This document shows positions 6,636 to 10,459 of a DNA stretch of 64,000 nucleotides, one piece after another. Source of the stretch: Escherichia coli (GTDB lineage Bacteria; Pseudomonadota; Gammaproteobacteria; Enterobacterales; Enterobacteriaceae). Where the stretch lies: assembly GCF_003334355.1 (NCBI RefSeq), contig NZ_QOWP01000001.1. The stretch is one strand, 5' to 3'. Below the pieces are notes generated by a model. That model searched no databases and was not told where the DNA came from. It saw only the letters and a list, made by a program, of their open reading frames with translations. The position numbers and the translations under genes were made by a program. How positions within the stretch are numbered: the stretch's first letter is position 1; every line of letters begins with the position of its first letter.

Positions 6636-8066
<1,431 letters not shown>

Positions 8067-8249
8067 GCTCTGTCCCAGCGCCGCCTCCTCAGAAAAGAGT
8101 CGGCGCTGAAATTCTCCTTTCTTTCTGGAAAGCGCCTCGCATAATCTGAAGAAAACCAATGTAATACGCTCATCTGGATTGTTACCGGTAGATGCCCGGC
8201 GTATAGCTGATTCCATTATTCAACGCAGCGCCATATAAAGGGACAGATA

Positions 8250-8729
8250 ATGGAATCGCTCTCAGAGAGAACCTCAACAGGCTACCAGCAAATCCATGAC
8301 GGTATTATTCACCTGGTCGATAGCGCCCGGACGGAAACGGTACGTAGCGTTAACGCGCTGATGACCGCGACATACTGGGAAATTGGCCGACGAATTGTCG
8401 AATTTGAACAAGGTGGCGAGGCCAGGGCTGCGTATGGTGCGCAGCTAATCAAGCGACAATCAAAGGATTTAAGTCTAAGGTATAAGCGTGGGTTCTCTGC
8501 AAAAAACTTACGCCAAATGAGGCTTTTTTACCTCTTTTTTCAACATGTTGAAATTCGCCAGACAGTGTCTGGCGAATTAACACCATTGGGAATTCCGCAG
8601 ACACCATCTGCAGAATTCCCATCGGCAAAGATTTGGCAGACGCTGTCTGCCAAATTGAGAGGCTGTTTGATATTTCCACAGCTTTTGTATTGCATCTCCT
8701 ATTTTCGGTTTGTATATTCATGCAAATAA
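8250..8729 (+). pseudogene. yhcG: Truncated YhcG-like (DUF1016 family) gene; N-terminal domain only
   Basis: The first ~100 aa (…YWEIGRRIVEFEQGG…NLRQMRLFYLFF…IRQTVSGEL) resemble the DUF1016/YhcG N-terminal region as I recall it. After that the reading frame runs through a palindrome array and AT-rich sequence with no nuclease-like C-terminal domain. The intact 159-aa ORF could still be translated. Confidence 0.55.
8552..8653. repeat. Three imperfect palindromes with a CAGAC..GTCTG core, centres about 39 bp apart
   Basis: aattcgccagacagtgtctggcgaatt (8552-8578), gggaattccgcagacaccatctgcagaattccc (8588-8620) and ttggcagacgctgtctgccaa (8633-8653), read directly from the sequence. Confidence 0.7.
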
Positions 8730-8745
8730 ACGAAGGAAAGTTGCC

Positions 8746-9051
8746 ATGATTTACATTGAACAGCTTGAATTAATCCATAAAAGTGGTGATGTGTTGTATC
8801 CAGTAAAAATAACCAGAAAATCATCAGGAAAAACTGCCTTCCACCTTGTTCCATTCGGCTTAAATAAGACTCACGACCTTCTAGAGGTGGAAGATGCTTC
8901 AGAAGCAATTCGGCTGGTGATTGATGAACGTCATTCCATTCGCTGCAGTACACTTACAGCAACTATTACGAATAAAAAGGGCAAGCGAATTAAGCGGACA
9001 GGTATATACAGTATCAAGGGTGTTAACATAAAAGAATACAACGTCAGGTAA
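8746..9051 (+). CDS. Hypothetical small protein (~101 aa), orphan, AT-rich
   Basis: ATG at 8746 is preceded by a GAAGGAAAG Shine-Dalgarno-like sequence about 7 nt upstream. The ORF (in frame with the list entry 8710..9051) ends with a basic tail (KKGKRIKRTG). I recognise no motif. A hairpin follows at 9053-9092. Confidence 0.4.
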   Translation: MIYIEQLELIHKSGDVLYPVKITRKSSGKTAFHLVPFGLNKTHDLLEVEDASEAIRLVIDERHSIRCSTLTATITNKKGKRIKRTGIYSIKGVNIKEYNVR

Positions 9052-9126
9052 TGGCACAGAGCGGTCCGTCAGTTCAGGTTTGGCTCTGTGCCAAAGATGG
9101 GTCAGGTCACACCTGATCTAATAAAT

Positions 9127-10459
<1,333 letters not shown>

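Follow-up and report, generated by a model that had tools for sequence, protein, structure and literature searches.

What do three short palindromes do, or record, in a coding sequence that breaks off at the edge of the last of them? The question is raised by a truncated copy of yhcG in a 64,000-nucleotide stretch of Escherichia coli DNA (the window), where the palindromes follow each other with a period of 39 bp. A sequence-only reading had taken them either for a slippage or recombination scar marking the truncation point, or for an array of binding sites for a dimeric protein. The most likely reading of this putative element, as judged from the sequence comparisons outlined below, is a DNA hairpin or cruciform, and we consider it on balance probable that such an element resides in the coding sequence of the DUF1016/YhcG family and marks break points in E. 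coli.

All three inverted repeats were recovered where they had been reported, together with the peptides quoted for them, and they are in exact register as a three-copy direct-repeat family (spacing 39 and 39 bp; Table 1). The position of the third palindrome (P3) was likewise right, but its length had been underestimated, as the arms reach 15 nt in intact yhcG alleles (AAAGATTTGGCAGAC gct GTCTGCCAAATCTTT). The internal mismatch of the second palindrome (P2) reads C·A on the plus strand and G·T on the minus strand. Upon single-strand folding, P1, P2 and P3 yield -13.1, -12.9 and -11.1 kcal/mol, with z values of -8.1, -7.7 and -5.8 versus dinucleotide shuffles, and the whole 116-nt array (z = -11.4) is matched by no such shuffle. 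With a minimum arm length of 10 nt and a maximum loop of 5 nt, the window contains no more than eight perfect palindromes; two of these belong to the array, and the other six have an A run at the start and a T run at the end. The core CAGACNNNGTCTG, allowing one mismatch, matches three times in the 64 kb, always in the array. This count is not significant by itself (18 of 100 shuffles reach three), and the excess over chance is one of clustering and extended arms rather than of core number.

Table 1. Features of the truncated yhcG locus, in window coordinates
Feature	Position	Strand	Description
53-bp stretch 3' of the gltD stop	8068..8120	no strand	without counterpart in K-12-type strains (blastn versus the DH10B locus)
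yhcG 5' fragment (DUF1016 N-terminal domain)	8250..8655	+	nuclease-coding 3' two-thirds absent
Palindrome 1 (P1), unit 1	8552..8578	no strand	AATTCGCCAGACA g TGTCTGGCGAATT; 13+1+13, arms perfect over 13 nt; encodes (E)IRQTVSGE(L)
Palindrome 2 (P2), unit 2	8588..8620	no strand	GGGAATTCCGCAGACACCATCTGCAGAATTCCC, i.e., GGGAATTCCGCAGA caccA TCTGCaGAATTCCC; imperfect, 14 pairs, one internal mismatch, loop of 5 nt; encodes GIPQTPSAEFP
Palindrome 3 (P3), unit 3	8631..8655	no strand	ATTTGGCAGAC gct GTCTGCCAAAT; 11+3+11, arms perfect over 11 nt; encodes (K)IWQTLSAK
Left break point of truncation/replacement	8655..8656	no strand	outer edge of P3, 4 nt inside the intact 15-nt right arm
Replacing segment, 470 bp	8656..9125	+	supplants the yhcG 3' part, the solitary palindrome 3' of yhcG and the next 28 bp
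101-aa ORF in the replacing segment	8746-9051		termed "transposase / IS600 orf-like" in source databases

The window is 99.6% identical to the full-length yhcG of strain ERP001 from 8200 to 8655, and the comparison with the intact gene, which had been suggested as a check, places the divergence exactly at 8655, the last paired base of P3. The fragment belongs to the DUF1016_N domain family (PF17761). A full-length YhcG homologue comprises PF17761 (residues 19-184, E = 3.5e-42) and PF06250, and a six-frame profile search of positions 8600-9200 detected no C-terminal YhcG_C PD-(D/E)XK nuclease domain past the last unit. RefSeq names the identical stretch [quoted passage not shown], and by its sequence the copy in the window is a truncated pseudogene. 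At the junction, GCCAAAT is followed by TGAGAGG in the window and by CTTTCCCC in intact genes; the 8655/8656 junction is identical in 720 complete E. coli genomes, and homology to intact strains picks up again at 9126 (TTTAAGCC). The small ORF of the replacing segment has no match in Pfam, NCBIfam, PHROGs or PADLOC. That the segment is a diverged yhcG remnant was rejected, since a DUF1016 profile search revealed no similarity. In the place of the 53-bp stretch downstream of gltD, K-12-type strains carry a solitary palindrome and a 7.08-kb gltF-yhcADEF island.

The full-length, 375-aa yhcG harbours the same three units as an ordinary part of its coding sequence, and the notion of a scar had to be given up; what remains of it is that homology to intact yhcG does stop at the last palindrome, at a break which the units predate. 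Arrays spaced by 39 bp are present in many other taxa, and therefore, the array is not a local degenerate duplication. Nor do the data support, in this form, the idea that the first copy is the genuine one and the next two its degenerate duplicates. By position, the family-wide unit is the last, beside the (L)(S/P)W(S)HY motif, and in the AlphaFold model of intact YhcG unit 3 is predicted to form helix 127-136, just before the WSTY helix, with units 1 and 2 in low-confidence coil (pLDDT <50, residues 106-125).

The stretch spanning units 2 and 3 occurs in 3,658 of 5,426 complete E. coli genomes. Alleles with one, two and three units, formed through several different junctions, exist in E. coli and its relatives: the K-12 type and the window have three units, a 370-aa allele has two, and O157 (349 aa) has one, with a 78-bp deletion at the palindromes. 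The head-to-tail, in-frame units with a copy number polymorphic among strains are those of a coding-region VNTR. Other rearrangements concern the same elements. An 80-bp deletion in strain OkiPb01713, judged by gene spacing, has the left edges of P1 and P3 as its two ends. An IS1 junction is situated within the P3 left arm, and a 160-bp patch at 43-75% identity, in genes otherwise 90-100% identical, ends at the last palindrome.

Solitary palindromes are found in E. coli after gltD and after yhcG. In DH10B the former (ATTCGCCAGAC tgt GTCTGGCGAAT) is located 16 bp past the gltD stop, and in K-12 the palindrome alone matches there, with no yhcG remnant beside it. The gltD-nanQ interval adopts at least four arrangements among the 5,426 complete genomes: an empty site with one palindrome, yhcG alone, the gltF-yhcADEF island plus yhcG, and the truncated yhcG with the 470-bp segment as in the window. 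At the empty site (947 genomes), homology stops at the edges of the single palindrome, a 27-mer identical to P1 and the sole family sequence left. An empty site features one palindrome, and occupied sites feature one per end and one to three inside the gene. A 42-nt query for solitary copies matched E. coli genomes at a median of three and a maximum of six places; for each genome the best of these was listed, and all inspected hits were at the gltD-nanQ locus. Around homologues in other genera no palindromes related to the internal units were observed, and solitary copies outside DUF1016 genes are thus, among the genomes compared, an Escherichia feature. Solitary copies of the palindrome pattern were also seen at about 13 loci in viral contigs; by our rough estimate, chance CAGAC-containing hairpins or terminators would yield about this number, and these copies were discarded as evidence.

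In the E. coli sequences compared, deletions, insertions and replacements hence end at palindrome edges, among them the one at 8655/8656, where the break is 4 nt within the ancestral 15-nt arm and not strictly at the hairpin base. A single junction at a palindrome could be a coincidence, and the argument relies on several junctions at one locus. Since further rearrangements in E. coli stop at palindrome edges, too, P1-P3 are, by this comparison, pre-existing break points older than the truncation and not scars.

Units that are in frame and variable in copy number, the last of which is modelled as a helix, could in principle constitute a protein-level QTxS repeat, the palindromy of which results from codon choice, or copies born at the truncation. 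The codons indicate otherwise. Among “Q[TAS]xS” units from 78 homologous loci in many phyla, 107 of 127 read CAG AC[AG] nnG TCT G. Serine is encoded by TCT in 98% of the units versus 16% in the remainder of these genes (11-16% where the invariant serines of PWS and LLS are encoded), glutamine by CAG in 99% versus 59%, and threonine in the units never by ACC or ACT, which together account for 53% elsewhere. The pattern CAG AC(A/G) nnG TCT G is kept regardless of a third-position G+C content that ranges from 0.34 to 0.87 in the unit-bearing genes. Palindrome scores of at least 11/13 were obtained at 84 of 11,409 linker positions, yet at only 4 of the 79,771 positions in the rest of these genes, and 135 of the 141 linker palindromes picked (score of at least 9/13) are centred on codon position 1. 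Synonymous sites are near-invariant within the units and random elsewhere, pairing is kept while the peptides change, the palindrome is also read in another frame, and the units are present in intact genes. These data contradict a protein-level repeat as well as copies born at the truncation, a possibility to which we assign next to no weight. What had been regarded as a conserved DUF1016 “QTxS” protein motif therefore seems to be a conserved DNA palindrome in translation, and not the reverse.

The pairing itself is conserved through compensatory change. The triplets flanking the core covary (ATTnnnCAGAC-nnn-GTCTGn'n'n'AAT), and over 112 distinct units 87% of the cells are paired, versus 24-48% with the partner slid by one to three columns, the former value being inflated by the choice of units by palindrome score. 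Changes on both sides affect 228 cells compared to 91 +/- 10 in shuffles (none of 500 reaches 228), and compensatory cells number 53 in columns 8/26, 49 in columns 9/25 and 52 in columns 10/24; the relatedness of the sequences inflates these counts. Compensatory changes thus maintain pairing across homologues, as in a structure-conserved hairpin. Even the core undergoes compensated changes: GAGAC..GTCTC gives the peptide ISETxSRK, TCGAC..GTCGA and TCAAC..GTTGA give ILSTxSK or ILSTPLK, and CGGAC..GTCCG as well as CGCGAC..GTCGCG are also found. In one homologue (L017) the palindrome is broken exactly where a TAA stop would otherwise arise. Across homologues the unit number ranges from one to five, with 39 bp as the commonest spacing; the period is 13 codons here and 12-16 codons in relatives.

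A more distant, unbiased sample comprised 61 distinct DUF1016 genes with 33-60% protein identity, which were found via peptide patterns of the C-terminal domain. A palindrome scoring 9/11 or more closely precedes the Trp codon in 72% of these genes, compared to 2.2% of control windows, and for scores of 10/11 or more the values are 51% and 0.6%; in 34 of the 61 the palindrome centre is exactly 18 nt upstream of this codon. The stems occupy the same place and are mutually unrelated, five of the genes read the palindrome in other frames (e.g., EFARQCLTNLSWSN), and most family members possess a single copy. These comparisons show that the three palindromes of the window are tandem copies, 13 codons apart, of an element native to DUF1016/YhcG coding sequence, that this element closely precedes the codons of the conserved (L)(S/P)W(S)HY helix, and that the units are older than the truncation. 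They also show that evolution has kept the complementarity of one arm to the other, and neither the peptide nor the stem sequence.

An array of dyad-symmetric duplex sites for a dimeric DNA-binding protein, acting as operator or roadblock, would agree with the conservation of the core CAGAC-RSY-GTCTG and the outer ATT/AAT in the YhcG subfamily, and perhaps with the weak model matches to the ParB/Spo0J DNA-binding domain. However, in 42 of 54 pairs of units from the same gene the variable triplet differs, although the triplets covary inside each unit, and one protein could not read all of them; duplex positions that are not contacted need no symmetry. Moreover, stems are unrelated family-wide, no host factor is common to the phyla carrying the gene, and 39 bp amounts by our arithmetic to 3.7 helical turns, which leaves the faces unaligned. 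The array does not combine one half-site throughout with helical phasing, and this part of the sequence-only reading is very improbable, with a small residual chance for the conserved core of the YhcG subfamily.

A hairpin in the yhcG transcript, which would regulate translation, the pausing of ribosomes at a domain boundary or the stability of the mRNA and thereby, for instance, limit a toxic nuclease, deserves somewhat more credit and is still distinctly unlikely. The predicted stems are stable in the transcribed strand, they always reside within the ORF at the boundary between structural elements, and tight control of a candidate defence nuclease is plausible. Yet, mismatches do not display the wobble tolerance of RNA: G·T and A·C occur 18 and 16 times, respectively, in the YhcG-unit alignment and 8 and 18 times in the distant genes (26 versus 34 in total), small numbers in a coding context that limits which mismatches can occur. 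That both are similarly rare points to pairing of DNA rather than of sense-strand RNA. Furthermore, the stems often reach a 1-nt or 3-nt centre, which is poor for RNA loops, and solitary copies are retained outside coding DNA, where convergent genes flank them. Scans for terminators in 8000-9300 on both strands revealed no G+C-rich hairpin with a T/U tract, a promoter and terminator scan predicted no sites, and Rfam 15 gave no match in 8000-9700 up to an E-value of 1.

The main rival of a DNA hairpin or cruciform element is template switching alone, i.e., a mutational attractor without function, which we consider rather unlikely. One ancestral DUF1016 palindrome would be kept perfect by the copying of a change in one arm to the other, with the peptide drifting along and with unit gain or loss and breaks at the edges as side effects. 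Ripley, in 1982, and Lovett are the names reportedly linked to such correction of quasi-palindromes by template switching, and perfect arms without wobble are compatible with a hot spot of this kind. The arms are exact Watson-Crick complements with G·T no commoner than A·C, their length is variable (up to 17 nt) and ends only where coding forbids, and the non-coding solitary copies of E. coli stay perfect, too. Lavi et al. (2018, PMC5941160) found perfect inverted repeats in proteobacteria to be conserved beyond expectation and ascribed this to template switching, their conservation analysis covering non-coding repeats of 20 proteobacterial strains. Perfect arms and the lack of a G·T preference therefore do not prove selection, because template switching alone is argued to conserve inverted repeats (PMC5941160). 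The yhcG palindrome resembles such repeats in being short, perfect and conserved, with arms evolving in concert at a hairpin-prone rearrangement hot spot, and it differs from them in that it lies in coding sequence, occupies the same position across phyla, runs through synonymous sites and has a core conserved within one subfamily. The fixed position 18 nt before the Trp codon and the retention in about 72% of genes at 33-60% identity speak against a mere attractor, as does the rarity of such palindromes in control windows of the same genes (0.6-2.2%), which implies that coding palindromes are not generally long-lived or common. In addition, copying from arm to arm leaves unexplained why the CAGAC/GTCTG core of the YhcG subfamily is conserved even in another frame.

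The element shares features with several known systems. PARCEL (2010, PMC2996958) designates tandem, variable-number, in-frame coding repeats with dyad-symmetric DNA, which are horizontally transferred among distant microbes and form long tracts of 25-residue units in mostly membrane or surface proteins of unknown function. The yhcG units are likewise in-frame, dyad-symmetric tandem repeats that spread horizontally, but they comprise 12-13 residues, number one to five and occupy one set position in a family of nucleases; judged by the period (13 codons here, 12-16 in relatives), they do not represent the 25-residue amphipathic repeat. In contrast to PARCEL, the constant feature of DUF1016 is the palindrome and not the repeat, as most members are single-copy. 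A coding minisatellite shares the in-frame tandem units and the strain-polymorphic copy number (one, two or three), yet the units within a gene vary, each of them remaining self-complementary, and the single-copy state prevailing in the family is not explained by a minisatellite.

Integron attC sites conserve a palindromic organisation while their sequence varies, act as folded single strands and bound exchangeable segments. They span 57-141 bp, contain R and L boxes (R''/L''-L'/R') and extrahelical bases, reside at cassette 3' ends outside ORFs and require the IntI integrase. The likeness lies in palindromy kept over sequence, in the proposed folding as single strands and in segment boundaries, whereas the yhcG elements measure 25-33 bp and are inside an ORF; the records retrieved list no integrase from gltB to dcuC. 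REP/BIME elements are extragenic, are present hundreds of times in a genome and follow a consensus of their own. Like these, the yhcG palindromes are short hairpin palindromes, sometimes in tandem clusters, at rearrangement end points, but they are intragenic, and the inspected hits all fall between gltD and nanQ, at no more than six places per genome. A dispersal of the REP/BIME type was not observed with the best place per genome listed, a procedure that dispersed weak copies could escape. Finally, the core GAC-RNY-GTC presumably resembles matS (GTGACRNYGTCAC) and the Tth111I site (GACNNNGTC); both were dismissed as explanations, since the family as a whole does not conserve the stem sequence.

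The proposed element would act as DNA, folding into a hairpin where the strands are single or into a cruciform under supercoiling, and would function neither as a protein motif nor as a helix of sense-strand RNA. Selection and template-switch correction together probably maintain its perfect arms, and its ability to form structures may render it a hot spot for slippage, with gain or loss of units, and for illegitimate recombination, as in the truncation. The only gene that travels with the element across phyla is yhcG, and therefore, the YhcG protein itself is a candidate reader of the hairpin, a tentative proposal that draws on structural modelling. YhcG would join a helical, DNA-binding-like N-terminal domain, weakly similar to ParB/Spo0J, to a PD-(D/E)XK nuclease. 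The model shows a weak structural match to the ParB/Spo0J DNA-binding domain, which we assign to the helical N-terminal half; a sequence search of the PDB with YhcG retrieved no solved relative, and PADLOC places YhcG in PDC-S02, a candidate defence system (E = 4e-136).

In the literature on DUF1016/YhcG and on intragenic palindromes we found no description of this element. The “QTxS” case calls for caution in motif-based annotation and provides a natural example of a structure-level constraint threaded through synonymous sites, as well as a test case in coding DNA for selection on DNA structure versus concerted evolution of inverted-repeat arms by template switching. For E. coli, the palindromes would explain the gltD-nanQ interval as a structural hot spot, and for the family they offer a handle on an uncharacterised, very widely transferred group of nucleases with a candidate role in phage defence (PDC-S02). 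DUF1016/YhcG genes may even carry the hairpin or cruciform target of their own protein, a conceivable though by no means favoured scenario, in which the palindrome would serve as a cis site for self-control or recombination and, in E. coli, as the junction for insertion, deletion or exchange of the yhcG segment and of its neighbours; the palindrome numbers of empty and occupied sites are the pattern that supports it. If true, gene and site would together form a self-referential module, of a kind previously undescribed, in a candidate defence nuclease that is widely transferred.

The window is a stretch of E. coli chromosome with the gene order gltB, gltD, yhcG fragment, a 470-bp segment unrelated to yhcG, nanQ (yhcH), nanK, nanE and nanT, an arrangement found in 720 of 5,426 complete E. 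coli genomes. The three inverted repeats that the sequence-only reading described in the fragment are all present at the places it named, and in register they form a three-copy direct repeat with spacings of 39 and 39 nt. As single strands they fold much more stably than shuffled sequence, with z = -8.1 (P1), -7.7 (P2) and -5.8 (P3); the array taken as one piece reaches z = -11.4. Perfect palindromes whose arms measure 10 nt or more number eight in the 64 kb; two lie at the array, and the remaining six have an A run at the start and a T run at the end. An antisense 90-aa open reading frame (8449-8721, minus strand) encodes the mirror peptides IWQTASAK, ILQMVSAEF and IRQTLSGEF because the palindromes lie in frame, and was rejected as evidence for a gene.

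Features of the gltD-nanT region (P1-P3, palindromic units 1-3)
Feature	Position	Remarks
gltD	6648-8066	
yhcG fragment	8250-8655	
P1	8552-8578	13-nt perfect arms, one-base centre
P2	8588-8620	imperfect palindrome
P3	8631-8655	11-nt perfect arms, three-base centre
Replacing segment	8656-9125	470 bp, A+T-rich, between yhcG fragment and nanQ; stands in place of the yhcG 3' part
ORF in replacing segment	8746-9051	101 aa
nanQ (yhcH), nanK, nanE, nanT		minus strand

The sequence-only reading had considered the repeats a possible scar of slippage or recombination at the truncation point. This explanation falls by the refuting outcome which that reading itself had named, since an intact yhcG carries all three units: in strain ERP001 (375 aa) homology to the window spans them and ends at 8655. 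The stretch of units 2 and 3 occurs in 3,658 of the complete E. coli genomes. Copy number varies: in the O157:H7 gene (349 aa) a loss of exactly 78 bp leaves unit 1 alone, a 370-aa E. coli allele contains two units at a spacing of 36 bp, and protein clusters contain further one-unit forms with differing unit 1/unit 3 junctions as well as three-unit forms in Pseudocitrobacter. The element was amplified to three copies in the window's yhcG lineage and is older than the truncation.

The first clue to conservation of the palindrome came from unit 1 of the 370-aa allele, AATTGTGCAGACA c TGTCTGCACAATT, which differs from its window counterpart, AATTCGCCAGACA g TGTCTGGCGAATT, by three changes per arm, every one compensatory. 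Homologues were then represented by 80 loci, one genome per species, with 55-97% protein identity, from Enterobacteriaceae, Beta- and Gammaproteobacteria, Acidobacteria, Cyanobacteria, Planctomycetes, Nitrospirae and Deltaproteobacteria. Nearly all contain one to five 'IxQTxS[AG]x' units between an FYxxW/F helix and FPLPWS[AH]YV, and 107 of 127 units use the codons CAG AC[AG] nnG TCT G. TCT encodes the serine in 98% of units; its share is 16% in the remainder of these genes and 11-16% at a nearby pair of invariant serines; glutamine is CAG in 99% against 59%, and the threonine codons ACC/ACT, 53% elsewhere, never occur in units. Among these genes, G+C at third codon positions spans 0.34 to 0.87. 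Retention of 55-68% protein identity across Betaproteobacteria, Acidobacteria, Cyanobacteria, Planctomycetes and Nitrospirae (loci L009-L088) points to frequent horizontal transfer of yhcG.

The unit consensus is ATTnnnCAGAC-RSY-GTCTGn'n'n'AAT. Palindrome scores of at least 11/13 are reached at 84 of 11,409 linker positions versus 4 of 79,771 elsewhere in the same genes, and 135 of 141 palindromes picked in linkers (score at least 9/13) are centred on codon position 1. By our reasoning from geometry, this phase leaves second codon positions unconstrained, puts the burden of pairing on third positions, and has only first positions pairing with one another. In an alignment of 112 distinct units (A3), 87% of cells are paired versus 24-48% with the partner column slid, and both sides change in 228 cells versus 91 +/- 10 in shuffles, none of the 500 shuffles attaining 228; the paired percentage and the shuffle test are inflated, the units having been picked by palindrome score from related sequences, while slid controls and codon statistics are free of this bias. 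The three variable positions contain 53, 49 and 52 compensatory cells, seventeen versions of the triplet are seen with perfect complements, and the triplet differs in 42 of 54 within-gene unit pairs. Even the core varies in step: GAGAC..GTCTC (peptide ISETxSRK), TCGAC..GTCGA and TCAAC..GTTGA (ILSTLSK, ILSTPLK) are compensated in the other arm, and the arms also change together in CGGAC..GTCCG and CGCGAC..GTCGCG, the encoded peptide altering along with them. In one gene the palindrome ends exactly where a TAA stop would form. To judge from these comparisons, it is the palindrome, not the peptide, that is the conserved entity.

When viral contigs were scanned for the pattern, the palindrome also turned up within DUF1016 genes that share just 30-50% identity with YhcG. 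For an unbiased sample, viral contigs were searched with C-terminal-domain peptide patterns, yielding 61 distinct genes, from which control windows were also drawn. The best palindrome directly upstream of a conserved Trp codon scores at least 9/11 in 72% of these genes versus 2.2% of controls, and at least 10/11 in 51% versus 0.6%; in 34 of the 61 its centre lies exactly 18 nt before that codon. The stems are mutually unrelated (CGTATCACTGATACG, GCTACGCACTGCGTAGC, GTGAGACGCTGTCTCAC, GTGCAACAACTTGTTGCAC), and the peptides that they encode vary with them (VSLIRE, YALRSE, ETLSHL, QQLVAQ). Position and self-complementarity are therefore conserved family-wide: DUF1016 genes contain a position-fixed, self-complementary DNA element, whose CAGAC core is confined to the YhcG subfamily. 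The main rival explanation, for which Lavi et al. 2018 (PMC5941160) provides the basis, holds that the palindrome lacks function and persists through template switching alone. Yet the position is fixed across deep divergence, other parts of these genes rarely contain palindromes, and the core stays conserved even where one viral-contig group reads the same DNA in another frame (EFARQCLTNLSWSN).

Two further palindromic sites were noted. Viral contig IMGVR_UViG_3300029449_000247 (L090 9938-9985) has two adjacent perfect palindromes that fit the pattern, ATTCATCAGACactGTCTGATGAAT and ATTGGGCAGACgttGTCTGCCCAAT, 23 bp apart with AAT/ATT ends in common, outside any detectable DUF1016 gene. Burkholderia diffusa (L065 3982-4014) has a 15+3+15 perfect palindrome, CTTAATTCTCTCCGC ggt GCGGAGAGAATTAAG, 1.36 kb downstream of its yhcG homologue, which might belong to a second DUF1016 gene.

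For a helix selected in mRNA, G·U should be much better tolerated than A·C. Among non-Watson-Crick stem cells G·T and A·C are equally rare, with 18 versus 16 cases in YhcG units and 8 versus 18 in the 61 distant genes; a terminator scan of the locus found no U tract, and Rfam gave no match for the element. These small numbers therefore suggest a DNA-level element, a hairpin on either single strand or a cruciform. The centre comprises three bases (R-S-Y), across which no covariation is seen. On the tests run, terminator, Rfam RNA and REP identities were rejected, and the proposed array of dyad-symmetric binding sites was not borne out.

Intact YhcG matches Pfam DUF1016_N and YhcG_C, the N-terminal match extending 166 residues over 136 profile positions. 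In its AlphaFold model (mean pLDDT 72), residues 97-126, which include units 1-2, are coil (pLDDT below 50 at 106-125), and unit 3 forms helix 127-136, followed by the WSTY helix. PADLOC assigns YhcG to candidate defence family PDC-S02. Published work ties DUF1016 genes to type I restriction-modification loci and conjugative elements, and is silent on palindromes.

In E. coli the element coincides with rearrangement end points. The window's truncation (8655/8656) falls at P3's outer edge, which in the intact allele is 4 nt within a 15-nt arm; a derivative of the truncated allele has lost the 80 bp between the left edges of P1 and P3. K-12-type strains carry a solitary palindrome, ATTCGCCAGAC tgt GTCTGGCGAAT, 16 bp past the gltD stop, which lies at the left edge of the 7.08-kb fimbrial island gltF-yhcADEF (L089 5735-12814). 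The island is missing from the window, which diverges from K-12-type sequence two bases past the gltD stop codon and has 53 unrelated bp (8068-8120) instead. An ETEC strain has an IS1 that abuts the left arm of P3 on one side and a solitary palindrome after gltD on the other. Strains with intact yhcG have a further solitary copy 15 bp past its stop, which in one allele family (ATTCTCCAGAC tat GTCTGGAGAAT) matches unit 2 of the same gene. Between E. coli allele families, yhcG is 90-100% identical save for a 160-bp patch at 43-75% that ends at the last palindrome.

yhcG is wholly absent from 947 of the 5,426 genomes, leaving a 67-bp gltD-nanQ spacer. This spacer (L208 1584-1654 in E. coli E41-1) contains a single perfect 13+1+13 palindrome identical to P1, its left flank that of the K-12 gltD-side copy and its right flank resembling the yhcG-side copy's; homology to K-12-type strains stops at the palindrome edge. 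The empty site may be ancestral (insertion at a palindrome) or derived (deletion between palindromes). No related copies were found in the flanks of homologues in genera outside Escherichia. In E. coli GYB01 (L005 2550-3309) yhcG was independently truncated at nt 237, where an IS3 fragment and a group II intron reverse transcriptase gene with a frameshift now adjoin it; this break lies upstream of the palindromes, so not all breaks at the locus fall at a palindrome.

The 101-aa product of the replacing segment belongs to a 328-member cluster restricted to E. coli and Shigella, and databases label it 'transposase' or 'IS600 orf-like'; as searches of Pfam, NCBIfam, PHROG and PADLOC gave no match, the name looks unsupported. 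The last ~80 bp (9041-9123) contain an inverted repeat, GGCACAGAGC...GCTCTGTGCC, and resemble, with 76-84% similarity, unannotated sequence at other places in ~600 other E. coli genomes (534 at 60-80%, 85 at 80-90%). A copy that was inspected is flanked by an IS3 transposase fragment and a phage tail fibre assembly gene; this stretch could represent a small repeated element or the end of a prophage.

The nearest described class, PARCEL (PMC2996958), likewise consists of palindromic coding repeats but differs in its 25-residue units, long tracts and surface proteins. Integron attC sites would offer a functional resemblance only, with structure conserved and sequence free at segment boundaries. 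We propose that the DUF1016 element works as a DNA hairpin or cruciform, the arms of which would be kept by selection, aided by template-switch correction. Its folding would promote slippage and illegitimate joining, and could so have produced the truncated yhcG of the window. More speculatively, the YhcG protein, a candidate nuclease, might itself read the element.
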